DNA of 64,000 nt from Amoebophrya sp. A120 (Eukaryota; Protista; Dinoflagellata), in the NCBI GenBank assembly GCA_905178155.1, contig CAJINV010000001.1, positions 155,079 to 219,078 on the forward strand, in the 5' to 3' direction. The position numbers were made by a program, and so were the translations under genes. Position 1 is the stretch's first letter, and every line of letters begins with the position of its first letter. A model generated the notes under the pieces. The model did no database searches and was not told where the DNA came from. It was given only the letters and a program-made list of their open reading frames with translations. Below are positions 8,092 to 60,454 of the stretch, in pieces.

Positions 8092-8299
8092 CCGAGCTCG
8101 AATGAGAGAACTTCTTGATGAACAATCACAGGCGCAGCCATGTCGTTTTGACTAAATTCGGACCATTTTTCGTTGTTGCAAAATTGCGTGCTTCGGGTCG
8201 TTTTTTCGATTTCGGCCGCACCGCGCGGCGAGAGAATATGTTGAGCGAGAAAAAAAACTGCGTCTTCCACCCCCCAAAAAAAAATATAGCGCAAAGCGC

Positions 8300-13630: not shown

Positions 13631-14173
13631 TTGGTTTGCATGGAAAATATTTTTTTTTTTGTTCAATGGTCTAAATGGCTCGAATGGTTATGGTCAGTCT
13701 GACCCTCTTGAATCCATAGAAGATCTGATATTCTTGATCTCTGTCATCAATTGATTTGAAAAGATTTCGAATCAGGGGAAAAATAATGATGTTGATGTTG
13801 ATGATTCATTCTGATTTTTATTCGTAGAAATAAAAAGAAAAAGAGTGCCGCGTTGGTGTTTGTGATTGTGTGTGTCTGCCGTGAAATTCATTAATACAAA
13901 CATGACAAGATGATGATTATGAAGATCAGAAAATTGGTGTGAATGTAGTCGGAACATGGGGGACATGTGGAGGTGTTGTTTTGTGCGCATGGAGGCCAAG
14001 GCTCTGCTTCCCGGGCAGCCTCTGTGTCGCGCTTCTGCGCAGTACTCCGCCGATTGTCAAAAGAGTATGGATCTTGTCGTTGTGGTCCGCTTTGGTCCCG
14101 CGCTGCGGCCGCGGCCCGGCTGTGTTGTCTTGTGTGTTCCATAGCTATTTTGTCGTTGTTTTTTATTTTGATT

Positions 14174-33600: not shown

Positions 33601-36600
33601 AAGAAATTCTTTGGCGGAGGATCCACGACCGCTTGCCACGTTGAACATGCCGCGCGTCACCTGTCGCAGCGCCACTGCCCCCATACCGTTTGCAAAGAAA
33701 TCTACCCACGTCTCCGACGGCCTTGCGTTCTTCTTCTTCTCACCTCCTCGTCGGGAAGTAAAGCCAGCATGTTCTTTGGAGCGCGCACGACCTGACATCA
33801 GCTGCAGCCAGGTCATTTTTTCGCCGCCTTTGGTGAAAATAGTTTTAAAGACTATAGACAGATAAGGACTTGACTCAAAAGCTGTAGGGAAGAGTTGCGA
33901 AAACCTTAAACAGGCTCTAAAGTTGCGGCTCAACCTGCAGCAAACCTGGAGCAAACCCCTAGGGCTTTTCAAAATGGCGCTGCTTGCTACTCGCGAAAGC
34001 GCACGCTATTCGGCCCAAAAGATGGGGGTCGACCCGTAGGGAACAAGAAAAAATCACGAAAAGCGCGACACTTTGGAAGCGCTGAACCTGCATGCTATTA
34101 CGACAAAGCCTGGAGCTTTTCTGGGACTCGAGCTCTAGAGCTTTTCACATACTTGCGCTTTTATTTTTCGAAAGCGCATGCTGCTGTGGAAATATTTCCG
34201 ACAAATTCTGCGACTTGAGCTGTAGGGGTTCAGCGCGATGAACGACAAAGAAACCCCTGGGCGCTGCAAAAATAGCCCGAGCCCTACACGCAGCGACGGC
34301 CCCCGCGCTCAGAAGAGAAGCCCTGCAGCGAGCGCCCTGCAAGCAAGCATGCCTGGAGATCGGCCTGCAATGCCCCAAGCAGTCCTCTGCGCCCTCGGCT
34401 GCACACCTTCCCTGTAACCAACGCCCCGAGCCCGGGCCATTCACTACGCGGCCCCTGCGGAGAGGGGGGCCGCCTCGGCGCCTACTTCGACGCCTATTTC
34501 TACGCCTACCCCTGCGCCTACGCCTACCCCTGCGCCTACCCCTACGGCAACCCCTACGGCTACCCCTACCCTACGGCTACCCCTACCCTACGGCTACCCC
34601 TACGGCCACCCCTACGGCTACGGCTACCCCTACCCCTACCCCTACCCCTACCCCTACCCCTACCCCTACCCCTACCCCTACCCCTACCCCTACCACGTCC
34701 CTGCCCCTACTACGCCGACCCCTACCTCTACGCCTACTGCTACGCCTACTGCTACGCCTACTTCTGCGCCTACTTCTACGCCTGTGGCAGGGGGCGCTAT
34801 TTTTTTCAGCAAAGCCTCCCCCGTCGCCACATATGATTTTACGGCGCTCCATAGGCATACAAGCTTGCACACGCACAACAGATCTGTGCGCGCGTAGAGC
34901 GAGGCGCCGCCTAGAACTCAGCTAGCTCCTACGCAGAACGAAGGCAGGAGAAAGGTGGCCGCAGGAGCAGCCGCGCGCGGCCATGGATTCAGTCCTTGGC
35001 GATGTGGCCTCAAGGTACGTGACACGCAAGCCCCCGCCGCGGCTTTGGTGTATGCGTATGGGCAGGCGCTTCAGGATAAATCAGCGACGGTCTCAGGATA
35101 AATCGATGACGCTCTGACTAGCTTTGGAAGCAAGGGCCCCACGCGGGCGGCCGATACAGGATAGGCTGGCACCTTGTTCGGCGCCTTTGAATTTATTCCC
35201 GGCCAGGCTGTGACGCAAGCCTCCGCTTCGGCCGGATTCGCGATGTCGCTGCTCGCGACGTAACTCCTGAAAATCTGCGAACTTGCGCAAACGAAAAGCG
35301 GGGGCGGGCTTGGGGGGCCCCCTTTCATGAGGATACCAACGGGGGGTCGGTAGCCCTGCGAGAAGGCCTTAAAGGGGGGGCCTGGAGGACCTCGGAGGCA
35401 CCCCAACCCAAGGGGATTTCGGCTTGCAGCCCAGGAGGGCGCTCTGTTGGTCTCCGTGCAAAACAGTCGGGGCGAAGAAACGCCGCGTGGGACCAAGGGC
35501 CGGAAGAGCGCCGCGGCCGGCCGCGGCATCAATGAATGTCATCGGCAAGACCGCGCACGGCTTTGAGAGAGTTATTCTATCAAAGGCCACGCGTGGGCGC
35601 CTGTTTCGCCTGTTGGGGCGTGGGCCTATTGTTGGCTCCAGTTCGCAGCGCCTGTGGCTTTGGGTTGGCCGCGTATAATTGCTGTCATTTTAAACGAACC
35701 GGCAGCACTGCAGGGGCTGTCTGTTGGACATCTACGCCGGCCATGACCGACGAGCGCACGCAAAGCCGTGACGCAATGCGCCACCAATCCTGCCTTCAGA
35801 CTACCGAGCCCAGAATACCGCGGCAGGCGCTGTTGCTACGCGGTCGATTTCCACCGCCCACGAGGTATCTCCTATCTTATCTAGCGACGTCGACGGGTGA
35901 GCCATATGTAGCCGAAAACAGAGCAAAGCTTTTTGAAAAAAAGCGCTTCCCATGCATTGCCCTAGCGCCTACCCCTGCGCCTACGTACCCCTGCGCCTAC
36001 GCCCGCCCCTACGGCTACCCCTACGGCCAGGCCTACCCCTACGCCTACCCCTACCCCGACCCCTACCCCTACTACGCGCGCCCCTACCTCTACGCCTACT
36101 TCTACGCCTACATACTTCCACCCCTACTACGCCTACCCCTACTTTTACGCCTACTTCTACACCTACTTCTGCGCCTACTTCTACGCCTACTTCTACGCCT
36201 ACTTCTACGCCTACGCCTACTTCTACACCTACCTCTACGCCTACCCCGCCGCCTATTTCTGCGTCTAATTCTACGCCTACTCCTGCGCCTATTTCTACGC
36301 CTGCGCCTATTGCTGCGCCCTCAGCTACGCCTACTGGCCAGCTGCGTTCGCGGGCAACCGGGCCCCCAGTAGTCGGCGCGGCCCACTAATCCCCCCGCCC
36401 GCTCCTCGGGCGACGCCGGAGGCATTTTGATGGCGCCCCCGCGCCGCTTTGATTGAGTTTATTTGTTAAGGGCACACAGCGGAAGGCAGTGCCTATGAAT
36501 TGCAGTCGCTTTCGGTCTTCTTTGGGCCGGTTTTTTGCTTCATTGATTCAAGCCGCCGACCGCATGGGGACCAGGGGCGGAGCCCGTGCAGGTCTCGCAG

Positions 36601-37634
36601 GCTCCATCCTCGGCGACTTCCATGCACTAGATATCGACAGACCCTACAAAACCTACAAGCCTTCGAGTCAGCTCATCTATGTGTCTATAGTGCCTCAATT
36701 ATGAAGAAGTTGCCGCGCCGTTGTGCCAACACGGCGGCGCGAGTGCAACATATGATCACTGGGACGAGCAGCCGTCGTTTTTGCCGCCAAGTAGACGGAG
36801 CTGGTGGAGTTGTCCGCCGGTGCGGGTGCCCCCAACTCCTCGTCGACGTCGCGGCCCCCGAGGTGCTGACCGCGGCCATAGTAGTTCTTGATGTGCTGTG
36901 CGACGTTCTCCTCTTCCTCGTAGTGGTTTCGCTCATCTGTACTACTGCCTCCTTGCTCGTCATGCTCATCCTGCGCAAAGGAGCTGCTGAGCTGAGAGAT
37001 GCCGCCGTCAGGCAAAGTCTCCAGGGAGAGAAAGTCAGGTTGAAGTTTGTTTGTTCTTGTTGGCCTTGGCCCTTCATCATATCCACTGCAAAGAAAGCAT
37101 CGCAATCTTACTTTTACTTTATCAGCGGCAGTTTTGCATGACAGAACAGATAGGGGTCGTTCATGTGATGATGTCCATCTGCATCTGAACAATGGTGACC
37201 AAGACAAATCAAGTGCGCTGCTCTTCTTCTAGTTCTATGTATATAGGAAAATTCTGTCATGCGAAGATTTGATCGAAGAGCGATGCTTTTATTGCAGTGC
37301 ATATTTTATTACCCAGTAGATGTTTCTCCCCCGCATGCCGCTCGCTCTCGCCGCTCGAGAAGTCCTCACTTCTGCTAGATCTAAAACCTTTCTCGCCTAC
37401 TTCCCTTTCATCATCTGCACTAGTTTGTTCCGTCGCAGCTATGCTGCCGACCACGGTAGGAACCTCCACTCGCAACCGCAAATAGCAGGGCGAGAGAAAC
37501 CAGATGGCGCCCAATAAAGCACATGTTGCTCGCTGAAGCTGACGTTGTCGCCGTATCACTTTCAACTGCTTTGGCGGTGGACGACGCCAGCATAATATGC
37601 TGGAGAAGGACGCAGCCACCGTCTTGCTCAGCAT
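24694..37634 (-). CDS. Unknown protein, paralog B; many introners plus two larger transposon insertions
   Basis: Collinear with paralog A. At the junctions checked, the frame is restored by removing the IR/DR elements. The last exon ends ...IQPFHIVLIVAIPVGLLLGCAVVKNDFTR* (stop 24694-24696). Could be a pseudogene if the large inserts are not spliced. Confidence 0.65.
24843..25276. mobile_element. 434-bp hAT-type foldback MITE with 8-bp TSD
   Basis: Near-perfect ~210-bp arms. TSD GACCAGAG at 24835-24842 and 25277-25284. The right end reads TAGGGATGGAAAA, resembling the Ac terminus. Confidence 0.9.
26022..26234. mobile_element. Introner family D (TATCCCACAGAAAA)
   Basis: IR TATCCCGCAGAAAATAGCAGG...CCTGCTTTTTTCTCTACTGGGATA. 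Confidence 0.7.
26358..26679. mobile_element. Introner family F (TATGGAYGYGTCAGGATCGAAATCG)
   Basis: Perfect DR TGCGA; siblings at 29172 and 31659. Confidence 0.8.
26758..27042. mobile_element. Introner family E (TATGGGA.TCTCAAACG)
   Basis: IR TATGGGAGTCTCAAACG...CGTTTGAGAATCCCATA. Confidence 0.75.
27097..27400. mobile_element. Introner family A
   Basis: Right end TTCCAGACCCAGACATATTTGCAGTCGATA; interior similar to 28260-28511. Confidence 0.7.
28013..28194. mobile_element. Introner family B (TATGCACTGCAAAAGTA..TCGCACTCGT), specific to paralog B
   Basis: Family B IR ends; absent at ~15730 in A. Confidence 0.75.
28260..28511. mobile_element. Introner family A, specific to paralog B
   Basis: Perfect DR CCTCC; empty site TTCGCTTTCCTCCCGCTGACCG at ~15776-15797 in A. 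Confidence 0.85.
29172..29480. mobile_element. Introner family F, specific to paralog B
   Basis: Perfect DR CCGTC; empty site GTGGCCGTCCTTTTC at ~16378 in A. Confidence 0.85.
29598..29991. mobile_element. Introner family B-like, specific to paralog B
   Basis: DR GCATT/GCACT; empty site CCCTGCACTACGCGC in A. Confidence 0.75.
31258..31507. mobile_element. Introner family E, specific to paralog B
   Basis: DR GCGGC/GCGGT, IR TATGGCGTTCTCAAC...GTTGAGAACGCCATA. Confidence 0.85.
31659..31955. mobile_element. Introner family F, specific to paralog B
   Basis: DR GAAGA/GACGA; empty site CTAGGAAGATACGCGG in A (~18622). Confidence 0.8.
32236..32430. mobile_element. Introner family D, specific to paralog B
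   Basis: IR TATCCCACAGAAGAAG...CTTTTTCTGTGGGATA. Confidence 0.75.
32491..32725. mobile_element. Introner family E, specific to paralog B
   Basis: DR GAGTG/AAGTG; close sibling of 31258-31507. Confidence 0.8.
32909..33145. mobile_element. Introner family E, specific to paralog B
   Basis: Perfect DR TCGCT. Confidence 0.8.
33249..33396. mobile_element. Introner family B, specific to paralog B
   Basis: Perfect DR CGTTT; absent at ~19210 in A. Confidence 0.85.
34480..34790. repeat. Hexamer array (CCCCTA / CGCCTA / CTTCTA)n
   Basis: Visible directly; pure (CCCCTA)n at ~34627-34692. Confidence 0.95.
35960..36335. repeat. Second hexamer array, same orientation as the first
   Basis: (CCTACG / CCTACC / CTTCTA)n visible directly. 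Confidence 0.95.
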
Positions 37635-41825: not shown

Positions 41826-44800
41826 TCACGGTGCTGCCATCTCGACGCCTTCGCCTTCTGCAGCGACCTCGCCGGCAAGCTCCTTCATTTCCGCTTTGTC
41901 CGGCATAATCATCCCCTTCACGGCATCGAGCAAGCCCTATCAGAGTGCACAACCGCGTGGTCCCAACCGCCTCTCAACTCATTTACATTTGTACTACTGC
42001 ATGAACAACAACATCAGAAGGGTCAGCAAGAGACAGAAAGAATGCAGCTTTTCTTTCATGAAAAACTTTCACAGGATTGTAGTGGTCTTTGGGCTCCTCC
42101 TCGCTCCTGCCAGAATCTGTGATGCTGACATTTCCAAGGGGTTGCAAAAAAACAAAGTGGAAATTTGCTTTGGTATTTTGCATGATGAAGACAAATGAGG
42201 GGGAGGGGGCCGACGAGTTGTGCAGCACTTTCATAAGCCCAAGAACGCCGGCGCGAACACGAAGCCGGCGAGCCCGGATTTGACCACCACCAGAATCACC
42301 ATCGCCGGGTAGATTTCGAAGGCGAGCGAGGTCGAGAAAATCAACAGCACCAGCTGCTGGACCGCGGTCGAGAGGAAGGCGGTGAAGACCGTCAACCCCA
42401 TGTCCTGCACCGCGGTCTCCGTGCGCGCGAGACCCCCACCCGAGGTGGTTCGCGAGTATGCAAAGGCGTGCACAATGTGGATGCTGTACTCGATCTCGAA
42501 ACCCAGGGCCATGATGATGACCGCAAACACGATCACATCCAGCTTCACGTCGAAGGCAGACAGCAGCCCCACGATCTGCACGTTGACCACGAGCATGAGG
42601 ACCCCAATCATCAGACCGTAGTAGGGGTGCAGGAAAAGCATCATCATAATCGTCACGGCCAGGGTGACCACGAACAAGTACTCGGTGAGCTTGTCCAGCA
42701 TCTCGTCATCCCTCTCGCTGTTTTCGAAAAACGACGAAACCACGAACGAATCGGACTCGCTGCCCCACAAGTCGGGTCTGGCGGACCGCGCGTTGTCGAT
42801 GATCGCCTTGATCCGCTTCATGGCGTCGGTCCGCTTCTTCGGATCCAGGGGCGCGCGGCACGCAATGCGCACGGTGGACGAGGTCATGCCCTCGATCATG
42901 CGCCCGTTCCCGTTCGCTGGCGCCTGCATGGCCCACACAATGTTGCGCCCCTGCTCGCGGCCCCAGTAGCTGACGTGCGGCTTGGTAATGTCGGGTTTCT
43001 GCTGCACGTGGGTAGGGGACATTATGAACTGTAACAGTATCGTACTCGTCGTAAGTTCAGATAGAAGTATTGCAACACAAATTAGCTTAGCATGACAAAT
43101 GGAATTTCTCATGCTGGTTTAGCTTGAAAAAGACACTTGTCTTGCATGACTGCAATTAGTACGAGTACGATACTTTTGCAGAGGATAGGCATGTGGGAGG
43201 TGCAGCACGCGTCCTGATTCACGTCCTCGTACCAGGCATGCATGTACTCGTAGAACATCTGCGGATTGTCTTCCCAGTACGCGGTGCGCTTCTCGTAGTG
43301 GGATTGGGTGAAGGCCGGGCAGCTCTGCTTCTCGGTTGAGAAGGTGTTGTGCAGGTTGTACTTTTCATCCTTCAAGGCCCGCATGGTAAAGATCAGCCAG
43401 TTAGGCACCGGGGAGACGGTGACGTTGTTGGCGATGTGCGCGAGAAGCGCGTTCATGTCCGCGAACTGACTGATGTCGGACTGTATGCATTGCAAAAGTG
43501 TCCGGGTCTGGAAACTTGTGATGCAAGGAAGGGAGTAGTGAGCTCACTGTAATGCGCTGCAAAGCATGACAATTTTTTTTCATGGTTCTGAGTTGCGTAT
43601 TCCGCATGAGAAGCTGCGTTTTTGCATGACAGGGAGAAGGAGCTCTTCGCGGCCACGCAATACAGAGCTCAGAGTCATGCCAGGCTAGCATGACAAATCT
43701 CGCAATCTCCCAGACCCAGACATTTTTGCATTTGATAGACTGCGGGCTGACGGGGTCCATCGAGTACAGCAGTTGGTACTGGTCCAGGGCGTTGGCCGGG
43801 GCGGTCGCGGAGAAGCCCCCATTGTACACCTCCGCTAGTTCGTAGCCCCCGCCCCCGACCATCGCCAGCTCCGGGAACCCGAGCCCAACCGCCTGCAGTT
43901 TGGCCGCGGTGTCGGTGGTGTTCACGCCCTGGGCGGTGAGGTATGAGTGTGCGCAACTCCGTGCTCTCCTCCTCATTTGTATTCTACTTATTTCCATTTG
44001 CATGAACAGCAATACAGACCTCAGCAGATATGAAGCCTGTGCATGACAAGTTCAGGCACCGTTTGTAGAAGTTGTACAACTGCTTGAGCTTTGCATTTGC
44101 TCCCCGGAACAATTTGTCATGCAAGCAGTGCCACAAGGGAGCAGTTGCAGTGCAGCTGGGTTCGGAGATCTGCATGACAAATGAGGCGGAGGGAAAGTTG
44201 TTGTGCACTCTCGTATGAGGAGCCCGTTCAGGTACGCGTCGTTGATACCGGTGAAGCGGAAGCTGTTCCGCCCCCGTTTGCTGGTGCCGGTGAAGTATCA
44301 AATGCAAATATCGATCTGGGTCTGGGAGATCATGAGATTTGTCATGCTGATATGTTGGCATGACCCTTAACTCTGTATTGCGTGGCCACAAACAGCCTCC
44401 GTAGCCGTCATGCAAAAACGCAGGTTCTCAAGCGGGATACGCAACTCAGAAGCACGGATGAAAAACTTGTCATGCTTGGCAGCACGTCGCAGTGTGCTCA
44501 CTATAATTCCCTTCCTTGCATCACAAGTTTCCCGACCCAGACATATTTGCACTGGATATGAAGAGCGTGTTCGTCGGACCCGCGGCGCCGTTCAGCAGCG
44601 CGATGTTCTGGGCCGGGTTGGCGATGAAGGGGAGGCGCTTGTTCCCCGTGTTCATGATCAGGTTCATGGGGCAGACCTTGCAACCCAAGTGCGTCGCCGC
44701 GGACAGCGGCTCCGACGCGAGGAAGTTTCCGTACAGCCCCTTGTGGTGCACCTCAAACTCCTCCAGCCAGGAGAACACGCCCGGGACCCCCACCGGATTG

Positions 44801-47800
44801 CTGATCGGGTCGTTCTTGATCTGGTTCATCACGCCCAGAAAGTAGTCCCGATTCGCCTGCTGGTGGTATTTGCCCAGGTGCGAGGGCGGCATGTAGACGG
44901 TGATGAAATCCGAGTAGCCGCCCATGTCCTCCAGATGGTCCAAGAACTTCCGGGCCTTGGATTCCTTGTCCAGATAGTCCTTGCCGTTAAACTCGACCTT
45001 GACGTCCTCAAACATCACGGCGCCCACGCACAGCAGCGCGATCTCGACGCAGATCACAAACGCGATGCAGATTTTGTTGCTCACAATCTTACTGAACATG
45101 GCGTCTCCGGAGGTTGTGGTTAGCAATTTTCCCATGTTCTGCTGCACCTGCTTGTCCGTCCAGTTGCTAGCTGTGGTCGTCTATGCACTGCAAAAGTACT
45201 ATCGCACTCGTACACGACATCGCAATCACGCATTGCAAGTCCCTTACTTTCTCGAGGTAGATCCGCATTACAAATTCCGCTTCTCATGCTGAGGTAATTT
45301 GTCGTGCGATTTTTACTACGTACGATACTTTTGCACACACGATATCGTCCCCGTCTCTTCGGACCGCAAATGCTCTCCGCCGTACTTCTCTGCGAGGACG
45401 AACCCCCCGAGGAAAACGGTGAACAAGGTGATGTAAAGGCCGATCATGCCCAGCGCCGTGTGCCAGCAGAAGTGGCGCAACGCCAACACCTCGACGATGG
45501 ACCCGAAACAGTAGCCGACGAAGATCGCGAGGCAGGAGAGCAGGATCGACCGATGCGCGTACCCGACGGCCTGCTCCATGCGCTCTTCGAACTTCAGCTT
45601 GGGTGTGAGTCGGTCGTAGGCGCGGACCAGAATAATGTCGTAGTCCACCACGATGGCGAGCAGCAGGTGAATGGCGAGCGGTGACATCACGGTCAGGGCA
45701 AGTACGCCGTCGTCCTCCCCGTCCTTGTCCACATCCCCTCCCATCGCGTATCAAGTGCAAAAGTGTCTGGGTCTGGAAGTCTTCCATGCATATTTTACAT
45801 AACCCATGACGCCTGTAATGCATGGCCTAGCATCACAGATTTCTAAAGGGCCTTCTGATGCGTATTCCGCATGAGAAACGCCCACTCCGCGTCGCACAAA
45901 CTGAAGAACTCCTCTTGCTGGTCATGCAATACAGATTTTTTTTACCTTCTAAAGACAGCATCACAAGTTGCAACCTTCCAGACCCAGACATTTTTGCATT
46001 CGATATCGCGTCCCACATTTCGATCGCGCCGATGCCCCAGGAGAACAGCACCGCCAGGATGGGCTGGATCACGACCAGCGCGGCGACCGCGGTGCGGGCG
46101 GGCTTCAGGCCGTTCGGGCCGCCTTCCGCCGAGTAGCGGATGCCGATCGCGCAGATGAGAAAAAAGATCATCAGGAAGAACGTCCCCACCAGGTTGCCGA
46201 TCTCGTTTGTGATCACGCGGACGATCTCCATCGCCAGCCACTTGCTGTGGAAAATGAAAACATCGATGCCCCTGTCGTACAAAGCCTTCCACTGGGACTT
46301 GCTCGGCGGGTCGTCGTCCTTCTCGATGCCGTAGTTGTCCTTGTACTCCTCAATGATTTCATCCACCCACTCCTCCCGGTCCTCCAGGGACAGTGCGTTG
46401 CGGTTCGACACCCGCCGCCACTCGTATGACAGTGCACAACTCCCCCTCCGCTTCCCCTCATTTGTATGGCATGAACGGCAATACAAGCGCCAGCGAGAAT
46501 GCAGGTTTTGCATGACAAAATGAAAATTGCACCGGATTGTAGTGCTATTAATTTGGGCTGCTAGAGCTTGTCATGCAAACAGTGCTAAGAGGCACAGCCT
46601 GATGAATTGGGCACTTTGCATGACAAATGAAGGGGACGAGGGGGAGTTCTTGTGCACATTCATAACTCGTTCCGGTTCAGTTCGCACTCCGAGCGCAGGT
46701 GGTATCACACAGAAAAAAGCTGGCAGGTCATATTTGTGATGCAAAAATAAACTGACAAAAAGATTTGTATTGCATATCGTTAATAGCATGCTATGAGGCC
46801 GCCCATCATGGCAGATTTTTTTGTGTATTTATTTTTGCATTACAAATATGCTCTGCCCGCTTTTTTCTGTGGGATAGGCGGACCAGGGTGAGGAAGGTTT
46901 CGCAATTGGAGATGCGGTACGGCGCGAACTTGCGGTCGGAAGCCAGGTAGGCGAGGCAGCCCTGACACTTGGTCGGGAAGGTGGCCACGGCGGCCCGGCC
47001 GCCCAGCACCGTGGCGGCGTTGGTGGCGTCCTTGGTCGCGTCGCGCCACGTGTGCACCGCCGGGTTGGCGCACGAGTCCGCGTGGTCGGTGCAGGTCTGC
47101 GGGCACATTTCCGCGGTCATCTTGTTCAAAAATTCCGGCTTGATAGTGCAGCCCCCCACGTCCGCGGCGCACTTGCACGCCTTCTCCGGGACGCCGTCGC
47201 AGCCCACGGTTTGCACGGCCGAGTTGAAAGCGATCCGCTCCGAGGTGTCCACGCAGGAATGGCACCCGGGGGTGAGTTTTCCGGCCCCGGCGGCGTTGAT
47301 GGCGCTCACCGGGTTGCCGGTGGCAAGGTACACGGCCCCGGCGGCCAGGTCGTAGCGGTTGTTCAGTAAGTCCAGGTAGGTTTGCAGCTTGGTGTGCTGG
47401 CACCCGATGGCCAGGCAGCTCTGGCGGCACTCCTCCTCCGCGGTGGTGTTGGCCCCCGCCCCGTAGGCGCACTTGGTCTGCAGCGCGGCGTCGCCGCCGT
47501 AGGTGCTGCACTGGGTCTGGTCCTGCTGCCCGACCATGAAGGCCGGCTCCAGCTGCGCACAGAAACCGGGCGCGAGGCTCTCGCAGCGCGCCTTGCACGC
47601 GTTGCCCACCTCGTCGCACTTCGAGTAGGACCGCATCAGGCACATGGCGGCGGTCACGTCCGCGCAGCTGTTCACCGTGCTGGGCTTCCCGATAATGGCC
47701 GCGAGGGCAGTTTCGTCGTCGGTGCAGTTGCATCAAATGTAAAAATGTCTGGGTCTGGAAGATTGCCAGGTTTGTCATGCACATTTTGCATAACTCCTGA

Positions 47801-50071
47801 TGTCTGTGATGCATGCCCTGGCATGACAGATTTTGTGAGGGGTTCCTCATGCCTACACCGCATGACAAATGCTCTTTCCGTGTAGCAAAACTTGGACTCT
47901 CTCTGCTGCTCATGCAATACAGATTTTTTTAGGATCCAAAATCAGCATGACAAGTTGGATTCTTCCAGACCCAGACATTTTTACAATTGATAAGTTGCCG
48001 TACGAGTAGGTCGTCAACTTTCGCAATATCGAACAAAAAAGTGTTAACGTTAACGGTTTTCTTTTCATTTCTTAGATGGCAGTTATGCATTACAAATTTT
48101 GCCTTCCATGCATGTTACGCAATACAAATTTGGGCACCTTTTCTGATGCGTTACTGCATCACAAATTCCGTTATACGTTAACGCTTTTTCTTGTGATACG
48201 CAACGCCGCCCGTTCCTCCTCGTCGAGTTCGTCCACCTCCTGCAGCATGCGCTGGCGGCCGCCGCGGGCTTGCAACATGGCTTTGATCGGCTGCACCGGG
48301 CAGGTGGTCGAGGTGTAGCCCGCCGCTGCATCCGGGGCTGTGCAGTCCGCTTGGACGGACGCGTCGCGGATGTCCTCGTGTACGACCTTCATCAGCAGAG
48401 AGCCCATGTATCCGCTCATGAAGGTGCGAACGGGAAAATTGGAAAGCGCGAGCCGGGTGGGGCCGTCCCAAACGCCCACCAGCGGCGCGGCGGTGTAATT
48501 CAGCATGGCGCCGAAGTGCCGCGGGTCGTTCGTGGAGCAGGACAGCTCGCCCAGAAGTGGATTGGCCAAACCGATCGTGGACAGCCAGCTGTCGGTGGCA
48601 CACCAATATTGGTGGTCCATCTGGTCCGAAGGCACCCCTTCCTGGGTCGTCGACTGGAGACAGGCAGCTTGACTGGTCACCTGGCCGTCCGCCTCAGTGA
48701 CTAAGTCCATGCATCCGGACAACGGATCCGCACGGCAGTAGGGAATGGTGCGGACCTAAGAAGGTAGGGGAGGCAATAAAGCTGGTTGGATATCATAATC
48801 ATTTATCATTTCTTTTCCTCGTTCAGCGTTCGGGCTCGTCGCCTCGTCCTTTATTACCATCCATAATGATGGGTCGTCGAGAAAACAAGCAAGTAAAAAT
48901 GTGGTGCGAACTAAATTGTCTATTTCAAGTACGTACTTACCCCGTAGGCTGCGGTCATTCTTGCAGTGTTGCAAACGTCCGCTGCAGCAACGGTGCCGGC
49001 ATCCGCGCACTGGCACCCGCGCTTCAGCGCAGAGCTCACGTAGACACTGCCGGAGTACTTGCACACCGGGTGGATGTGTTCTCCCTTGTAGGTGCCGCAA
49101 GCGGCCCGGTGCCACTGCGAGGTGGTCTTGTAGTCCATCTTCGTGTTGAAGGGGCAGAAGTCGGGCCGCCACGCGTTGCCCTTTTTGGTCCTCCGGGTCT
49201 GCACGTACTGCTCAAAGTTCCAGAGTTCCTGCAACGCGGGGGTCTCGCACAGCCCGGCGTTGGTGCCCGTGGGCTTGTTGCGCATCCGGAACAGGAAGGC
49301 GAACGCGTCGCCGTCGGACTTCCCGGTTTTGAGATTTTTCTTCAGGCACTGCGTTTCGTAGTCTTTCACGCCGTAATCGCGCCCCTTCCACGTGTCGTCC
49401 CCGATGGCTTCTTTATACGAGATCCGGCCCCCGGTGATTTGCTGCTTGATCGTGTCGTACTTCTTGCTGGTGTCCGACTCGCTGGGCGAAAACACATCGT
49501 AATCGCCGCGAAAGACGAAGCCCTTGCCGATCTGCGTGGGGCCGCGCTGGCCGTCGCCGAGCGCGATGAAGAAGGGGATCGCGAAGAGCAGCGGGATAAG
49601 ACACCCCAGCGAGATGCAAAGCACCGGAAACTGCACCGCCATGCGCCCGTAGGCGCGGCCGACTTTCAGCGCGGCGCTGTCAATCGCCGCGCCGACCAGG
49701 GACAGGGGGTCGTCCGCCACCTCGGGTGGAGCGGGCATTTCGCCCATTACTTGCTCCTTTTCGGGTGCTACTGGTTCCGCCATCTTGTTGCTGTTGGCTT
49801 CCTCTAGTTGAACGTTTACAACCTCGACACCACCAGCACCAGTCGGGCCACTTGCTTCGCCTTCAGCACTTCCTTCTGCACCAGGTGTAGGACCTCCTTC
49901 TTGGTTCCCCGCTTGTGGATCTTGTTCTTGATTCACCTGTTCTTCTTGCCCGGAACTGTTATTTTCGTCTTGGTTTTGCCCGCCTGGGGCAGCTTGGGGC
50001 GATTCTGGTGCCAATGCGTCAGAAGTCAAACCTGCTCCTTGAAGCTCTTGGTCGGTAGTTGCGGAAGACAT
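41826..50071 (-). CDS. Patched/NPC1-like (RND, sterol-sensing domain) membrane protein, 13 exons
   Basis: Two hydrophobic TM bundles with the motifs LAIVVDYDIILV and ALGFEIEYSIHIVHAF..VQDMGLTVFTAFLST, separated by large luminal loops. The junctions checked rejoin in frame (SHM-SPTH, PQS-DISQ, TLF-TGTS, AYG-VRTI). Confidence 0.85.
41938..42235. mobile_element. Introner family C
   Basis: Perfect DR AGCCC. Confidence 0.85.
43023..43187. mobile_element. Introner family B
   Basis: DR GACAT/GGCAT; IR AGTATCGTACTCGT / ACGAGTACGATACT. Confidence 0.85.
43484..43737. mobile_element. Introner family A
   Basis: Perfect DR GACTG. Confidence 0.9.
43942..44215. mobile_element. Introner family C
   Basis: Perfect DR TGAGG. 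Confidence 0.85.
44296..44558. mobile_element. Introner family A, inverted relative to 43484-43737
   Basis: Perfect DR TGAAG; interior is the reverse complement of the 43484 copy. Confidence 0.9.
45182..45344. mobile_element. Introner family B
   Basis: Perfect DR TCGTC. Confidence 0.85.
45749..46005. mobile_element. Introner family A
   Basis: Perfect DR TCGCG, ~30-bp IR. Confidence 0.9.
46425..46664. mobile_element. Introner family C
   Basis: Perfect DR ACTCG. Confidence 0.85.
46703..46876. mobile_element. Introner family D
   Basis: DR GGTGG/GGCGG. Confidence 0.85.
47731..47992. mobile_element. Introner family A
   Basis: Perfect DR AGTTG. Confidence 0.9.
48027..48198. mobile_element. Introner (TATC..ACAAAAAAG.GTTAACGT ends)
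   Basis: Perfect DR CGCAA. Confidence 0.85.
48756..48940 (-). other. Canonical GT-AG intron
   Basis: GTAAGT...TTCTTAG, no IR, in-frame join AYG-VRTIPY. Confidence 0.85.
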
Positions 50072-50819: not shown

Positions 50820-51019
50820 ACGCGGCAAGCAAAGCGAAGGGGGCCGGTTGCGAAGCTTATTCTGGGGCGGCTTCGGCGGCCGGCGCAAAGAAAGCCCCCG
50901 CCCCTGGATGGGGATGAGACTCACGCTTCCGGGGGCTTGTTCGCGCGGTTTTGCCTCGCGCCCCCCCGCCCATGCCATGCACCAGAAGCCGAGAGGCAAA
51001 AGCGTGCCCGGCCGAAACG

Positions 51020-53629
51020 AAAGAGGTGGCAAAAGGTGACTGCCTGGAAGCTCTTGGCCATCACTCTTGCTCGGTTGCCCGACCGGAAAGTGATGAGCAA
51101 AAGTGATGGCCATGGAGCACTTGGCAAATACTTTTGCGCGACCCGACCCGAAAGCGGTGGCCGCGGAGCTCTTGGCCAACACTTTTGCCCGCGCGGGAAG
51201 AAAGAAAGTGGCTGAGTGATGGCCGAAAATGACGGCCAGGGAGCTCTTGGCCATCACTTTCGCCCGACCGTGCCGGAAGGCGATGGCCAAAAGCGATGGC
51301 CCGCGCAGGGAGCTCTTGGCCACCACTTTTGCCCGCCCGGAACGAAAGTGATGGCCAACGAGCGAAAGTCGATGGCTGGCCACGGAGCTCTCGGCCATCA
51401 TTTTTGCCCGACCGGAAATGGATGAGCAGGGAGCTCATGGTCATCATTTTTGCCCGACCGGAAAGCGATGGCCGGAAGTGATGGCCGAGGACTTTCGCAT
51501 GCCCGGGCGAAAAGCGGTGGCAGCGGAACTACTGGCCAACACTTTTGCCCGACAGGAAAGGAAGCGCTGGGCAAAAGTAATGGCCAAGGAAAGAGCCCTT
51601 GGCCACCACTTTTGCCCATCCGGAAAGTGATGGGCAAAAGTTAAAGCGATGGCCAAGGAGTTGTCGCCATTGTTTTTCTTTGCCCGGCCGAAAAGTGATG
51701 GCCAGGGAGCTTCTGGCCATCACTTTTGCCCGACCGGAAAGCGATGGCAAAAAGTGGTGGCCGCGGAGTTCTTGGCCACCACCCTTGCCCGACCGGAAAG
51801 CGATAGCCACAATCGCTTTCGCTCGAGCGAAACAAAAGCGATGGCCGCGAGGCTCTTGGCCAGCCATCACCTTTGCCCGGCCGAGAGGCGATCGATGGCC
51901 ACTTTGACGGCCAGGGAGCTCTTGGCCATCATGTGTGCCCGGCCGAAAGGCGACGCCCGAGGAGTTCTTCGCCATCAATTTTGCCAGGCCGGAAAGCGAT
52001 GGGTGGCCAGGGAGCTCTTGGCCATCCCTTTTGCCCGACAGGAAAGCGATTGCCAGCCAAAAGTGATCGGAGGCCAGGGAGGTCTTGGCCATTACTTTGG
52101 CCCGAGCGAAAAGTGGCCACTTTTGCCCGAACGGAAAGCGATGCATGCCCCAGCAGCTCCTGGCCATCATTTTCGCCCGACTCCTGGCCACCACTTTTGC
52201 CCGGCCGGAAAGTGATGGCCAAAAGTTTCACTTTTGCCCGACCGGAGGTGGTGGCCAAGGAGCCCGTCGCCGCCCGTCACTTTTGCCAGCCCAGCCCGGC
52301 CGGGCAAGGTACGGAGCTTTTGGCCATCACTTTTGGCCGCCCGGAAACTGGTGGCAAAAAATGATCGCCGCGGAGTTCTTGGCCACCATTTTTGCCCGCC
52401 CCGGCCGGAAAGCGATGGCCAAAAGTTATTGCCAAGGAGCCCCGGGCCATCACTTTTGTCCGTCCCGAAAGTGCTCTTGGCCTCCACTTTGTTTTGCTCG
52501 GCGGGCCCACCGGAAAGTGGGGGCCAAGCTCTTGGCCACCACTTTTGCCCGGGCGGCCGGAAAGTGATGGCCAAAAGTTAGTTTCAACTTTGCTCGACCG
52601 GAGGTGATGGCCAAGGAGCCCTTCGCCGTCACTTTTGCCCCGCCCGGCTGGGCTAGGAGCTTCTGACCATCGCTTTTGCCCGCCCGGAAAGTGGTGGCCA
52701 AACGTGATCGCTGCGAAGTTCTTGGCCACAACTTTTGCTCGGCCGGAAAATGATGGCCGGGGAGCTCTTGTCCATCACTTTTGCCCGGGCGAAAAGCGAT
52801 GGCCAAAAGTGATGGCCAAGCAGCTCTCGGCCACCACTTTTGCCCGATCGGAAAGTGATGGCCAAGGAGCTTTCGCCCCTCACTTTTGCCCGACCGGAAG
52901 CAAAGCGATGGCCGCCAAAAGTAGTGGCCGAGGAGCTGCTGTTGGGTGGCCATCACCTTGCTCGCCCGGGCGGAAGGTCATGGATGGCCAAGGAACTCCT
53001 GGCCGCCATTTTTGCCGGGGGGGACAGGAAGTAACGTTTGCTCGACCGGAAAGCGATGGCCAGGGGGCTCCTGGCCCTCACTCTTGCCCGGCCGGAAGGT
53101 GATGGCCAAGCAACCAAGGAGCTCGCAGCCCTCACTTTTGCCCGAAAGAAAAGTGGCGGCCAAGGGGCTCCTGGCCGCGCCGTCACTTTTGGTTGCCCGA
53201 AGGGAAATTGATGGCCAAGGGGCTCCCTGCCGTTACTTTTGCCCGACCGGAGAGTGATGTCCAAAAGCGGCGCCCATCCAAGGAGCTCTTCTTGGCCACC
53301 AATTTTGCCTGAGCGAGCGAAAATTGATGGCCATGGAACTCTTGGCCAGCCATCACATTTGCCCGATCGGGAAGTGATGGCCCAGGGGAGGCTTTTGGCC
53401 ATCGCTTTGGCCCGGCGGGCCGGAAAATGGTGGCCCAGGAGGAGCGCCTGCCTATTACTTTTGCTGGACCCGACCGGCAAAGTGATGGCCAAAAATGATG
53501 GTCAAGGGGCTCGCGGCCGTCACTTTTGCGCCGCCCGTCCGCGAAGTGATGGCCAAGGACCCCTGGGCCATCGCTTTGCCCGGCGACCGGAAACGATGGC
53601 CCACCCAGGAGGCGCTCTTGGCCACCACT
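51020..53629. repeat. Degenerate minisatellite of ~40-60-bp hairpin units
   Basis: Recurrent GAGCTCTTGGCCAYCACTTTTGCCCGACCGGAAAGTGATGGCC. Confidence 0.95.
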
Positions 53630-55036
53630 TAGACGAAGAACGGTTGTACTTCCTTGAATTGGGGTTGGGTAGCTTTTTATTTTTCGTATTGTTATGCTAT
53701 ACTGTTACTGTACTACAATCAACGAAGGGACGAACGTTCCCAACACTTGCTGATTGATATTTTGGACCGGTGCCTGTGATAAGACACTTCTGCTGGATTC
53801 CTCGATATCGATAAAGGTATAAGCTGTAGCTGATCTAACTATCGTTCCATAACGATAGAAGTAGAAGGCCACTGAAGAGTAGAGTCCACTACTAGTAGAG
53901 ACGGAAAATTATATTACGACTATTGTACAGGTGCAGTCTGCACGAAGCAGACTTGGAAAATAAGAGGAAAATGTAATATTATACACGCTACTACGCATCC
54001 ACCTGGGAGCGATAGTAGGGGAAAATCGGCCTGTTCGAAGCGATTTGCGATAAGAAGTGATGGCTTTCTCAGTTGGAGACGAGACACGAAGGGTCATCTT
54101 CGACATAATATCAACACCAGCATCTTCTGCGACCGCTTCTTGTACTATCTATTTGCTACGAGACCACGAGCACAGCTAGACTGCATTCCTCTCAACGACA
54201 GGCCGCGATTTTTCGATGTACTGTCGACCGAGTGCCTGTGCCCACGAATTTTCATACCTACGATATCGAGCTTGCTTCGTACTTTTCTTTTCTGTCAAGT
54301 TCAGCGACAGGCGAAGGCGATGGGAAGTTGCGTTTTATTGTTGCATAAGCTGCTTAAAAGCTCTTTTATGTTTATCCGAAACTTGATGTCCGAAAGAACC
54401 GAAAGCTGAAATTTCCGTCAGACTGGGTACCGCGCTCTATTGGCGTGCGCGTGGACATACAAAGGCAGCCGAGTAAAATCTTGTGACCGTGAGACGCTTG
54501 TTTCTGTTCTCGATTCGATTCACAGCTTCAGGCTGTAGAACACAACTAGGGGACCACAACTAAGCTGGAAGCCCGCAAGAGCTATCACGACCAGTTCTCG
54601 TCGTGTGTGATACGAGTACGAGTTGAACTGATGTAGATTACTACTTTAACTTTTACGCTGCTACTATCTTTTCAGAACTGCACTGCTTGTTTCAAGAGCA
54701 CAAGCAAAGTGATTCTCGTCCAGTGAGAAGTTTGGCTGAGTTCTAAACGACTTCTACCAGTTGCAAAATTTAGTGTACGTTCACGTAACTCCCGAATATG
54801 AGCTGTCTACTATGCGCAACATGGCTCGCTATCGCTATGTTTGTTTTTTCCTCGGTGTCAACAACATCTTTATGTGTGGCGCAACATCAGCGCAAGACCA
54901 AGTTCGAAGGGATCGTGTCACCATTGTAGTAGATGCAACTGGAACTGTACCAGGAGATTTGTGTAAGTATAGCACGAGCAGCTCCAGACATCAAGTTGCA
55001 AACTGTATTCCACCGTGTAGGAAACATGTTCGACGT

Positions 55037-58000
55037 TCAGATGTAGATTTGCGCGGCCCGGTCTGCCAGTGCGGCAACGGCGCTCGTCGTGCGGCCTTCG
55101 TCTTGTTCTTGAGCTGATTTCATTCTGTTCAACCGTTCCATTTCGGCGAGCGCTGCAGCCTTTACCGTGGTCCGCGCGTTGCGCTCTTTGCCCATAACAA
55201 CGGCTTCTTTCTGCGAGATCCAGCGGTGCAGTTCTTCGTGGTGTGCTGGTTCTTCTTTGCCAACCTGATGGCTGGTGGTGTACGAGCCGCCCTTGATGAT
55301 GTCGCCTGCAAGAACTTGTTTCGGGATGCGAAAGTGGTCACCGGCCTCGGCGACGATCCGAGCCTTCCACTCGTCGGACCATTCGTTGTTGCCCACACCA
55401 CTTCATTCAGTGCAAAAGTACTACCGCACTCGTTCTCGTAGTAATTGCAGGCGTGCATCTGCATGACTTGACAAAGCTCGCTTCGTAGGTCAATGAGCAA
55501 TACAGACTCCATTTTTCTAGGTGAAAAATCTTGCAATGCAATTTCTACCAATACGATAGTTTTTCTATGCATAAACTGCCCTGAACCACGTCCGCCACTG
55601 GGCCCCCCATGTCGCTGCCGCCGTGATCGTGCCCCGCCTGCGCGGGAAGCACCTGATGTACCAGTAATACCGTATGATTGTCATGATCATGAATGACTGT
55701 ATTGGACACAGTGCCATTCTCCTTCTTTTCAACATCGATGATACTGATAGGCTCTCTTCATCAGCACGGACACGGTTTGTTCCATGTACAGTACTATCGT
55801 TCCCGCTCCTAGGCTTTTTATGCAGACTACTACAAAACTGAAATTGAAGAGAAGACCTCACCATAAAACAATGAAAACACAAAGTACTACATGGCGATAC
55901 ACATACGTTACCTTCACCCCGTCCCTGTAGGTGACCGTCAAGTAGACCCAGAGTTTTCATGCAAGAAAAAAAACTTTTGTGGCGGTAGTCCCATGTATAT
56001 CGAATAAATTTCTCATGCGCCACTATCTTTAGTGTGTATGGTTGTCCCTGATGAGAAGAGTAAGAGACCACTCTGATTGACTATTTCATCCTGCGTGGCC
56101 ATACGCGTCAGCGTGACTGTGTTGCATGTTCCGCTTTAAAAATATGCATATGGCTCTTATTCAGATTAAAAACGATCGTCTACAAAGTTTCTCCTGGATA
56201 GTTCCTGCCAGCGCTTTACCGTCATCATCGTCATGCCCGTGGACTCCGCGGACAGAAACGCACTCCGCGCGTTTCTATTTTTCATGCCCAGCGCCTGCTT
56301 CTCGATGATCCTTTGCAGTTCGAAGTGGGCGGCCTCCAGCGTTTGGACCTCCTTCGACACGATGGGCGCCAGAATGTCCCACTGTGCGAAAATATGCTCT
56401 GCAAAAGTATCACATTCGTTTTCGTACTAATTGCACATGATAAATCTTGTTTTATCTTACCCGAAGCTGCACCTGCATTTGCAAATTCTAATTCCATCTT
56501 TCTTTCTGAAAAACTTGGTTGTAAAAATGCAACTTATACGAGTACGATGCAATATGCTTTTGCAATTCATAGTACACCCGGTTGGCGACCAGCTGGTTGA
56601 GCCAGAACAGGCTGGTGAAGGAAAAAGTGTTAATATCCGACGAGGACGGGGTATCCAATGCAGCTTGTCCTGTACTACTAGTTGTTTCCTCGTCAGCAAC
56701 ATCCTCTTCAAAGCACCGGTCCTCGGTTCTGGCCAACACGCGCCGTTTCTGCTCCTCGAAAGTCAATTCTTCGCTTATTTCATCTTCCAGGACCGGTTCG
56801 AGTGTCATTTTATCTCCTCCTTTCTTCGCATTCGCAGTTGTCGGGAGCAAAATGCTGGCGGTAGTTCTTTTCGAGGAAAGTGCGTTTTTAATATTTTGTG
56901 ATGCCGCCACGCCAGTGGCTGTTTTCGATGTCCTCGTGCACGGTTTCTTCTTGTTCCTATTTGTATTTCCTCCTTCACTTTCCCCGCCCGACAGCCCCGG
57001 GTTTTCCAGCGCTTTTGGCACGGTTGCGAATGCGTAAAACGGGATGTGCACGGAAAACCGCGTGTCGTCAACGCCAAACCAGAAAACCCCGCCGACCTCG
57101 TTCGGCAGCCAGTGCCGCATTTCCGCGACAAAGTGCCACGCGGTTTGCTGCGTCCCGATAGACCGCTCGTTGGCGTAGGATTCGCCGGAGTAGTATGAAG
57201 ATGAATAAAAGCCTCCCTTGCTCCCTATAACCGAAACAAACTGCTGAATTTGCATAAGTACACAGCTCTGTAGTTTTGCAGTCACGGATTGCAGCCAGAT
57301 GGTGCAGATCGTTGGCCTGTCTCAGGGTCAGGGCATGTGCGTCTTCTAGTTGTATATTTAGAATAGCACATGCCTGCGCCAGCCTGTTCTGTACTTAGCT
57401 GGTGCACCAGCTGCAGCATGAGTAGAAGTAGTAGTAGAAAAAGAAATCGCTGGCATTATAACGATTTGCGGCGACAAATGAAACGTGGTTGCAACAGTTT
57501 TTCTTTTCAAAATTGTATACAAGAAGGAGGTACGCTTTTTCCTCAGGAGATACGTAAGACCAGGACAACGGCCGATCGCGGTAGTTTGCGCGCCATGGGC
57601 CCATACCGACGTCAGAATTCATCTTCAGAGCGGAATCCTCGAAGCTGTTTCGCATTCCAAGCATCAGGTCCTTGGCGGCGAGCTGTAAAATGGATTGGAA
57701 TCGGAAGACCATGACTCGGTGACGCCGGACTTCTGGTTGTTCTGCCCTTAATTCATTGCATTCTAATTTCACGTGTTGCCTAGGCCTACTTACAACTTTT
57801 TGCACAGCATCATTCCACCTTCAATACCTTCTTTTTCACCGGGACGGAGAGCGGCATGCGCGTAGTCGCGCTCGTGATGTTTGCACCGAGCACGTACTTC
57901 TCATACTTCTTTTCGAAATCCGGAATGCTTGTCACCCGGCTGAAGAAGGACCAAACCCGTGCGTCCGACCAGCGGGCGCCAGTGAAGCTGATGGGATCGT

Positions 58001-59784
58001 ATGCCTGGGCCCAGTTGAACGGCTCTCCCTTGGACGGGTCATACAGGCCGACCTGGATTTTTGTTTTTCATTCTTCTTCTTGTACAGCTTATTTTAGGAA
58101 AAGATTAGCCTGAAGAAAAAGATGATAATGATATAAGAAACGGAAAATTCTCAGGTGTACTACAGCTACAGTGCATAAACCTTCACCTTGGAAAAGTATC
58201 TATGAGTATCCTCGAAAGAACAAGCCAAAGTCGCCACAATGTGGACTCAACTTGTTTCCAACTTGATGCACTATTTTTTTACCTTTGTCGCGAAACTTTC
58301 CACATCGGGCGCGGCCCGGCAGTTTGCAGTGTCCTTGACGTCAAAGGTCGTGATTCGTGCCTGGTTCGCGTGCCCAGCCACATGCCCGTCGGGGACCTTC
58401 ACCGCCACCCAGACGGCCCCCTTTTCGTACTTGCCCTTCCCGTATGAGAGAGCACAAAATGCTCTCCCCCTCCTCTGGAACATGAAGGCGAGGCCAGTGT
58501 TTCTGGCCTCACCTTGACAGAGGCAGTACCACAGATCATGTAGTGCCTTTATTCGCATGACATAAGTAAGTAGACATACTATCCGTTTCTGCATGACAAA
58601 TAAGGGGGAGACAAAGTAGTGGCTCACTCTCATATCCCGATCATTTCCAGAATCCACACCTCCGTCGGGTCGGCCAGCGTGAAAGACTCTTATCAAATGC
58701 AAAAGTGTCTGGGTCTGGAGATTTGTGATGCTAAAACAACCGCACCGACACTGCCATTGTCCAGCATAGCTTTGGAGGCAAGCCTCCGCAGGCTCTGGAG
58801 ATTTGTGATGCAAGTCAGGGAACTACAGTGCGCACACTGTAATGCACTGCCAAGTATGACAGGTTTTTCCGTGGTTCTGAGTTGCGTATTCCGCATGAGA
58901 AACTGCGTTTTTGCATGACAGGCAAGAGGTGCTCTTTGCGGCCACGCAATACAGAGCTCAGAGTCATGCCCGACTAGCATGACAAACCCACACTCTTCCA
59001 GACCCAGACATTTTTGCAGTTGATAACTCCCCCTCGGAAGCATATCCTTTTTTCTCAACCAAGGCCGGCATGATCTGGAGGGCCTCCTGCACGGTCTTCG
59101 CCCGCTGCAACGTCGTCCAGATCAAGTTCCCGTAGTCCATCACTTATGCACTGCAAAAGTATCGCATTCGTAGTAAAAGTGATTGCAGTCATGCATCGTT
59201 TTCATTAAGGGCATGGGCAATCCGCATTTCAAGTTAAGTGCATTTCTCACCACGCCAAGCAAATTTAATATTTTTGTGCTTGTGATGCTATTACTACCTA
59301 CGTACTAGTACGATACTGTTGCAATTCATATCACGGCCCCGGGCTGGCCCTGCGTCAAAATCGGTACGCCGCCAAAGGTGGTTTCGCCAATCGTGAGCTG
59401 GTACTCGTTCATGTTACCCACCACGTCGTACGTGGCGGTCGGCTCGGGGATTTCTCCCAGATACATCCCGGAATCCCAGTCGTAGATTTTCTTCACCGTC
59501 CCCGCGGGGATGTTTTCCCGCTTTTTGTACCGGCCCAGCGAGCCGTACAGGCCGGCACTGTCGGCGGCGTAGGAATACAGCGTCGCTCCGTCGGTACTCG
59601 CGCCTGGTGTGACAATCAGGTTCGTGCAAGCGTCGGTAAAAGTAGTTCCGGCTTGGAATATCAACAGTAGGTGGAGCAGACTTCTCAAGGCTGCTACAGC
59701 CGCTGCGCCACTGGTCGTGGTCGACGCTGCACCAGAGCCGGCTCCGCAACTACATGCTGAAATCTGGTGACCGCGAACGCGCAT
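55037..59784 (-). CDS. Peptidase family C69 (dipeptidase A / secernin-like Ntn hydrolase) with signal peptide, multi-exon; 3' end approximate
   Basis: Hydrophobic leader, then CTNLIVTPGASTDGATLYSYAADS (nucleophile Cys), VVGNMNEYQLTIGETTFGG, DYGNLIWTTLQRAKT, GES-FTLADPTEVWILEMIG, GHANQARI, NERSIGTQQTAW, GGVFWFGVDD. Confidence 0.88.
56393..56571. mobile_element. Introner family B
   Basis: TATGCTCTGCAAAAG...CTTTTGCAATTCATA; removal joins NRVY to AQWDILAP. Confidence 0.7.
58443..58634. mobile_element. Introner family C
   Basis: Perfect DR TCCCG; removal joins EMIG-KGKY. Confidence 0.85.
58691..59025. mobile_element. Introner family A
   Basis: DR ACTCT/ACTCC; removal joins GES-FTL. Confidence 0.9.
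59145..59330. mobile_element. Introner family B
   Basis: DR TCACT/TCACG; removal joins PGAV-MDYG. Confidence 0.85.
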
Positions 59785-60454
59785 CTTATTGATTTTTGTG
59801 TTTCTCCGCTTGTTTGTTGTACGTTCCGTTTGAGCCAGTCGCAGTCAAAGAGAAGTAGGTATCAAGATAAACTAAGTGCTTGTAAGTGCTCCAGCTTCTC
59901 TGGCATTCCGAGAAAGAAAATCAACAGCCAACAGCAAAACATTGGTCATTGATGTGTTCGACGTAGCCGTACCAGAAAAGCACGAGGAGCAGAGAAAAGA
60001 CATCGTGTTTTGAGTCATTCCATTCTAAGCGGCACAACTCCAACGGAAAAGAACAGGAAAACGATGGCTCCCTTGTCTTCGAATCGCTGTTGTATCTTCT
60101 CCAGATTCATTTTTCTGTTTGATGATGCAGATAGTGCAGTTTAAAGAACGACCAAGCTCCACGTTTGCGTTTCGTACTTCTTAGCAGGTCACCACACGAC
60201 AAAGTACAGATTTGCATACCAGGAAAAGAGCAGGCACTACAACATATCTACTAGGTCGACTAGCTTAATATTTTACAGTTCCAAAGTGGATGAGCAGACC
60301 CGGCGCAATGCGTGCGCCCCCCAAGGGGACCACTGATGCAAGGAAGTTCTTCTTCCACCGTCCGTCTGTCTCCGTTCTAGTTCTTTACTTTTTTGTTTCC
60401 TAGAATATTAACACGACCACACACAGCACTGGTGACAACTGCACAACATTATAT

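Follow-up and report, generated by a model that had tools for sequence, protein, structure and literature searches.

The gene at 42236–50071 of the DNA analyzed here raises the question of what a short internal motif is doing in the introner elements that interrupt it, ten in this gene alone. The window is a stretch of 64,000 nucleotides from Amoebophrya sp. A120 (contig CAJINV010000001.1, positions 155,079 to 219,078). The accessible parts of the published literature, to which our citations refer throughout, describe A120 introners as elements of about 240 nt in many families, which start with TAT, seven variable bases, and a run of A, carry inverted repeats and short direct repeats of 3–5 nt at the exon boundaries, and are removed from RNA without GT-AG (PMC7789003, PMC12130899). 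In A120, introns of the non-canonical kind are in the majority (PMC7789003). We found that the motif, GCAWBACARA, recurs at helically phased positions in families whose sequences are otherwise largely unalignable, and that its sites probably form a docking array on double-stranded DNA.

In a 10-mer enrichment ranking of the window, GCATBACAAA came first, with 54 exact matches against 0.47 ± 0.66 expected from 100 dinucleotide shuffles. Forty-five of these matches lay inside 48 curated elements (11,455 bp in total), eight lay in element-like stretches with inverted-repeat remnants (10163–10485, 12779, and 21408), and one fell in a coding exon (position 56895). An initial annotation of this DNA had claimed that such a motif recurs in most introners in both orientations, and these counts agree with it; the positions it gave were correct to 1–7 bases (43508 corresponds to 43515–43524, and 43563 to 43564). 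The consensus it proposed describes a real motif but is too narrow: the full form is GCAWBACARA, and GCATGAGAAA is also tolerated. Unconstrained expectation maximization for the motif drifted into a symmetric TG-N5-CA form. In several family consensuses, one central site either is lengthened to approximately CTAAACAGCA..ACAA or reads GCATGAGAAA, and may represent a second site class.

To place these counts in a larger sample, we used 512 distinct elements, 35 of them window copies and 477 from another public assembly, in which a scan with the family-B end returned at least 152 loci; nine were dropped and seven trimmed for overlap, and 602 kb was kept. The two element finders made 0 and 3 false calls on reversed sequence at the thresholds applied to the loci. 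Strand and region labels came from our own coding model, which agrees with the RNA-supported gene and overcalls coding in intergenic DNA. Window elements were 75–89% identical to those of the extra loci, and no window gene was matched.

The strict motif reached a density of 10.65/kb in elements, compared with 0.04/kb in the exons adjoining them, 0.42/kb in 44 GT-AG-like introns, and 0.45/kb in 65 long non-coding stretches, a depletion of about 25-fold in canonical-like introns and intergenic DNA relative to elements. The initial annotation had considered that the motif might prove equally frequent in intergenic DNA and canonical introns, and this was not the case. Within the host gene, the broad motif had 38 matches across 2,224 bases of element sequence and a single match across 5,742 bases of exon; the GT-AG intron at 48756–48940 had none, in line with the absence from exons and canonical intron first judged by eye. 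Each element typically carries several short sites in both orientations: at least one site was present in 511 of 524 element segments, and the 433 exonic copies had a median of five sites when up to one mismatch was allowed, five of these copies retaining none. Old orphan TAT-like introns were poorer in sites (4.4–6.9/kb vs 13/kb), and 8 of 24 had none. The ApiAP2 TGCATGCA-type motif is a promoter motif that would be enriched in intergenic or upstream DNA; this identity was rejected on the basis of the contrast between 0.45/kb between genes and 10.65/kb in elements.

The elements start with TAT(C/G), finish in its complement, and carry imperfect inverted repeats of about 30–45 bp and a 5-bp flanking duplication. 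In 387 copies detected independently of the repeat, the duplication was perfect in 296 and had one mismatch in 67, consistent with the TAT...ATA termini and 5-bp direct repeats reported initially. The end matrix of 394 confident copies and the window seeds follows the A120-type rule (TAT, seven variable bases, at least three A); families C, E, and F retain TATG without the A run. Family letters are those of the present analysis and differ from the earlier ones. Tips of the A, B, and U3 types resemble a degenerate motif site in phase with the inner sites, a likeness noticed post hoc. Elements shorter than 450 bp were aligned in 16 subfamilies of at least four copies each, and after masking of motifs and tips their consensuses fell into 11 groups. 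Families described at the outset as unrelated are thus mostly unalignable, but the description must be qualified by weak cross-family links (A–U3, E–U0, and B–U1) and by four further consensus pairs, drawn from D, F, G, and U4 (z about 5), which we did not merge.

The spacing of the sites is where these lineages agree. A direct pair of sites 31–32 bp apart was present in 10 of 11 largely unalignable lineages, against a null mean of 1.66 and maximum of 7; none of 5,000 simulations reached 10 of 11, nor did any of 3,000 in which any spacing was permitted. Phasing remained when the 31–32 bp pairs were left out (p 0.0034) and was present among inverted pairs (p 0.0008), and the first site lay 37–40 or 45–54 bp from the element end at 31 of 32 consensus ends. 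A joint geometric fit, constrained to keep direct pairs in phase and to assign opposite offsets to the two types of inverted pair, gave a period of 10.5 bp (confidence interval, CI, 10.4–10.6) and a score of 0.57, compared with 0.06 at 11.0. Periods of 10.35–10.5 bp (p ≤ 0.001) were recovered from 35 window copies, 10 host-gene copies, and 30 unclustered copies, with the same 4–5 bp offset of inverted pairs in all three subsets; across sets, scores were 0.27–0.57 at 10.5 bp per turn and 0.03–0.15 at 11 bp. The fitted period is that of B-DNA, not that of an 11-bp RNA duplex, and helix geometry would place all sites on one face of the DNA. Element lengths showed no significant preference for helical steps of the kind seen in ciliate eliminated sequences (52 lengths, R 0.29, p 0.37). 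This helical phasing of a motif across unalignable families is the new result of our analysis.

Because a single phased site is common to families that cannot be aligned, one DNA-binding protein probably serves them all. We consider it probable that the phased sites are a double-stranded DNA docking array for a mobilizing protein; the likeliest candidate is a transposase common to the families, acting through its DNA-binding domain. Such a protein would dock along one helical face of the short element, and the array would help to join the two ends of a 110–320 bp unit; one enzyme would serve all families. The 5-bp duplication, together with a family of matching ends already published for A120, suggests that this enzyme may be integrase-like, and splicing would depend on the terminal hairpin and end bases rather than on the motif. 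The common trans-acting factor of the initial annotation is supported by the depletion outside elements, the conservation described below, and the phasing across unalignable families; that it binds the sites is what we infer. The phased motif offers a defined bait for the mobilizing protein, with a half-turn shift of the pair as a built-in control, and a signature for locating an autonomous element.

Whether the motif is read as DNA or as RNA can be judged from strand and folding. The RBFOX-like motif is UGCAUG, and an RNA signal could take the form of such a splicing-protein site, of pairing with a variant small nuclear RNA (snRNA), or of conserved hairpin rungs. When the folding of 120 copies was predicted, motif bases were paired more often (78%) than other interior bases (60%), 39% of them with another site, which would favor a hairpin; inverted copies of a site would be expected to pair in this way. 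A slight antisense excess and the failure to detect U1 snRNA in A25 or A120 (PMC7789003) would also fit an RNA reading. Insertion, however, is orientation-blind: relative to predicted transcription, elements lay 174 one way and 176 the other (ambiguous copies left out), and TGCATG occurred 330 times in sense and 343 in antisense. Loss of the motif core was similar by strand (183/5199 vs 157/5412, p 0.08), and an RBFOX-like single-stranded RNA element was rejected, since the transcribed strand showed neither a bias in its favor nor extra conservation. Facing sites showed no covariation at their degenerate positions (one nominal result in 21 tests, p 0.006), some of these positions were almost always mismatched (8% and 0% complementary), and the scores at 11 bp per turn were low. 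We regard an RNA signal as largely refuted and, overall, highly improbable. The complementary-snRNA or RNA-binding version of the earlier proposal is not supported, given strand-blind insertion and core conservation, the lack of covariation, and a period of 10.4–10.5 rather than 11; of its two candidates, a transposase or a splicing protein, the double-stranded DNA evidence favors the transposase. End bases 1 and 3, by comparison, were strand-dependent, changing unequally between the 5' and 3' intron ends (1 vs 11 and 10 vs 1 of 373; nominal p 0.006 and 0.011, among 20 positions). Each element would carry two codes: strand-dependent end bases, likely for splicing, and a strand-blind internal array, likely read in DNA.

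Conservation bears on the remaining explanations. In 421 copies from 11 subfamilies of at least eight, change was 0.007 in the core vs 0.035 in the interior on internal branches and 0.034 vs 0.079 on terminal branches, giving core/interior ratios of 0.2 and 0.42, respectively. Context-matched core changes numbered 387, compared with 886 expected, so that the neutral decay under common descent alone that had been entertained at the outset did not occur. Descent of all families from one ancestor, with the motif as an unselected relic, would account for the shared TAT ends and the few weak cross-family links, but the motif and its spacing have persisted although the stretches separating the sites can no longer be aligned, and the deficit of core changes leaves room for shared ancestry, not for an absence of selection; we find this explanation barely credible. 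Only slightly less remote is a nucleosome or chromatin-wrapping signal in place of a mobilizer site: the period of about 10.3–10.5 and the A/T-rich tails on one face suit it, yet the motif has high base specificity and a fixed distance to element ends, is nearly absent from other non-coding DNA, and is carried by elements as short as 109 bp.

A more serious, though still unlikely, alternative is that the elements are coated by a DNA-binding protein, of host origin or domesticated, which is needed after insertion, for example as a mark for co-transcriptional removal or for chromatin organization. It predicts the same phasing and strand independence, and it turns on when selection acts. The clock given by target duplications ran at about 3% at codon positions 1–2 and 5.8% at position 3, and the terminal core rate (0.033–0.034) was near this post-insertion clock (0.03–0.04). 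Core change rose with insertion age no differently from interior change (0.010 vs 0.015, low power), and 22 copies in non-coding flanks retained the motif as well as 373 exonic copies; these two results, like the nearness of the core rate to the clock, speak against a need after insertion, as do the poverty of sites in old orphan introns and the five exonic copies without a site, one of which, at 56393–56571, seems to be removed from RNA. An apparent neutral decay obtained by ranking copies by their own interior rate was biased, and an unbiased split did not show it.

Several observations weigh against the mobilizer reading, and the first of them favor the coating protein. The core/interior ratio stayed at 0.32–0.48 in 209 disjoint pairs and was 0.38 (CI 0.25–0.54), far from 1, in the 30 closest copy pairs. 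Since duplication mismatch scales with neighbor distance, sparse sampling can explain the constancy of this ratio. The G-C pair of the motif changed at about one third of the duplication clock, being kept two to three times better, with position C2 changed in 18 of 1,812 cases vs about 3%. Two informative, old paralog pairs in the window differed at 1 of 29 core positions vs 49 of 235 others (p 0.02), with intact sites selected; among the loci, the three shared-site pairs showed few differences or none and told us nothing. A ratio that remains well below 1 even between the most similar copies, together with the slow G-C pair and the two paralog pairs, makes selection after insertion, and hence a splicing role, possible; since a copy has about five sites, such a need could be masked by redundancy. 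There is also the small antisense excess over all sites (674 vs 770, p 0.012, counts not independent). Most copies came from one other assembly and were chosen through the family-B end pattern, and gene models for the extra loci are predictions from sequence alone. A scan of 231 of 741 listed open reading frames (ORFs) in about 0.67 Mb gave no transposase or integrase family match, and the published analysis likewise identified no putative transposase in A120, its authors arguing against transposases as the general means of mobilization (PMC7789003). It is improbable, though less so than an RNA signal, that one array on a single DNA face both mobilizes the elements and marks them for removal from nascent RNA, an intron definition by a transposon-derived DNA code. 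If true, such DNA-templated definition would account for the removal, whatever their orientation, of some 2,000 families that have no splice dinucleotides in common, with U1 snRNA not found.

Searches for the mobilizer itself were negative. None of ten long calls examined for an autonomous element, including the ORFs of L018:505–1608, contained a convincing ORF. Viral contigs gave 0 matches of the family-B end and 49 paired-motif matches with at most nine sites per 6 kb, which we took as chance without a formal test. L018:505–1608 is itself an E-like element of 1.1 kb; its ends are near-perfect, its motif sites are confined to the left side, its filler is repeat-rich, and it gave no Pfam match.

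The host gene encodes a Patched/sterol-sensing-domain protein (Pfam PF12349, E 2e-11 on one exon); its elements are collected below.

Table. The host gene, its intervening elements, and a site-less element elsewhere in the window (+ and - after a position give site orientation)
Feature	Coordinates	Strand	Flanking repeat	Motif sites	Transcript-like evidence and remarks
Host gene	42236..50071	-			10 elements (each with one repeat copy) and the canonical intron removed give 1,792 stop-free codons
Element, family A	43023..43187		GACAT/GGCAT	4 (43072+, 43090+, 43105-, 43136-)	Joint 43017/43188 in X3 and X6 contigs
Element, family B	43484..43737		GACTG	7; direct pairs 31 bp apart, 43515-/43546- and 43657+/43688+	Joint 43478/43738
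Element, C-like ends	43942..44215		TGAGG	4; pair 44009+/44041+, 32 bp	Joint 43936/44216
Element, family B	44296..44558		TGAAG	5	Joint 44290/44559
Element, family A	45182..45344		TCGTC	2	Joint 45176/45345
Element, family B	45749..46005		TCGCG	5; pair 45926+/45958+, 32 bp	Joint 45742/46005
Element, family C	46425..46664		ACTCG	5; pair 46478+/46510+, 32 bp	Joint 46419/46665
Element, family D	46703..46876		GGTGG/GGCGG	3; site centers 37 and 68 from left end, 37 from right end	Transcript-like piece begins 46876
Element, family B, left end CAT	47731..47992		AGTTG	6; direct pairs 47771-/47803- (32 bp) and 47914+/47945+ (31 bp)	Transcript-like piece stops 47725
Element, family G	48027..48198		CGCAA	4; pair 48087+/48119+, 32 bp	Transcript-like piece begins 48199; beyond the range of the initial annotation
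Canonical GT-AG intron	48756..48940	-		None, even at one mismatch	Negative control
Decayed element, family A	56393..56571			0 at ≤1 mismatch	

The X3 and X6 contigs, presumed to derive from RNA, skip seven of the host-gene elements plus five bases each, and X1 had depth 0 at these joints; the seven are among 15 joint rows listed. Three informative RNA pieces retained the upstream repeat copy at repeat positions 2–4, and the codon model gave no signal as to which copy is retained (32 vs 34). Raw RNA reads of X11 matched only the family-B element at 47732–47992, with flanks from another locus, so that the family is shared and was unspliced there. At the decayed element, an X6 contig piece begins exactly at 56572, preceded by 188 other letters, with a joint row that is not among the 15 listed; this element, without any site, is apparently still removed from RNA. 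It lies within 55040–59844, a Peptidase C69 gene on the minus strand that is interrupted by several elements.

Other parts of the window carry related structures. The element at 10143–10345 shows local tandem amplification of a motif-bearing unit, with four strict minus-strand copies at 10163–10282, and a near-perfect 300-bp palindrome starting TATG, outside the element set, lies in non-coding DNA at 24908–25211. Paralogous genes at 15500–20350 vs 27800–33700 and 36770–37040 are 68–91% identical and differ in element presence; empty sites show a single 5-bp repeat copy, as visual inspection at 16842 and 17245 indicated. At 3264–3313 and 13650–13699, a 50-nt inverted repeat (78%) flanks 10.3 kb, possibly another large mobile unit, containing two plus-strand orphan genes (3697–12227) and a central inverted-repeat cluster (8301–8597); no motif was found near its ends, no Pfam match was obtained, one exon queried had no homologue, and no reads, those of X7 included, matched 3501–13000. 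At 50990–53630, a short repeat rich in palindromes, with GATGGCCA/AAAAGTGATGG units, forms an array that varies among X1 and X3 contigs, and CTACCC/CTACGC simple-repeat tracts occupy 34490–34790 and 35960–36330.

The window elements share TAT ends, direct repeats, and removal from RNA without GT-AG with published A120 introners. The accessible published descriptions cover the ends only, with no shared internal motif or spacing rule, whereas both are present here (PMC7789003, PMC12130899). The string 'gcatg' gave 0 matches in the supplement text of Farhat et al. 2021 (PMC7789003; figures outside the scope of the search). Neither motif nor phasing was found in the papers searched, including the accessible parts of PMC11282704 and bioRxiv 10.1101/2020.10.14.339549; figures, two supplement files of PMC12130899, bioRxiv supplements, and subscription papers (Roy et al. 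2023, journal version) could hold them. One paper contained GCATGACA together with Amoebophrya, and was set aside because the string occurs there in a primer.

Among known mobile elements, TDD-4 and TDD-5 of the Ginger2/TDD group make 5-bp duplications, Ginger ends are TGTNR, and 'subterminal' had 0 matches in the accessible text of the Ginger paper (PMC2836005). In supplement file 8, the 808-bp A120 family 38, which has TA/TA ends, is placed close to Ginger (PMC12130899). The window elements share the 4–5 bp target duplication of this group, but the TGTNR rule fails for their TAT(C/G) termini. Mu and Tn7 multi-site ends, CACTA TnpA, and Harbinger Myb-like sites are protein-site arrays that aid end synapsis, with 5-bp duplications in Mu and Tn7. 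We offer these systems as an analogy only; their termini differ from those described here.

The hAT element Hermes has subterminal AAGT sites bound by BED domains and an 8-bp target (PMC10368747). The likeness lies in many short internal sites in both orientations, quasi-palindromic; reading of the duplex by the transposase is a property of Hermes. As to differences, Hermes has a 4-bp site and an 8-bp target, whereas here a 10-bp site, for which binding is a candidate property, recurs in helical phase along the entire element and is common to families that cannot be aligned, and the target is 5 bp. The phased array would thus appear to work like a subterminal-repeat system, although we would class it as neither hAT nor Ginger. 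The element class is already published for Amoebophrya A120 (PMC7789003), and what our analysis adds to this known class is a phased internal cis-code.

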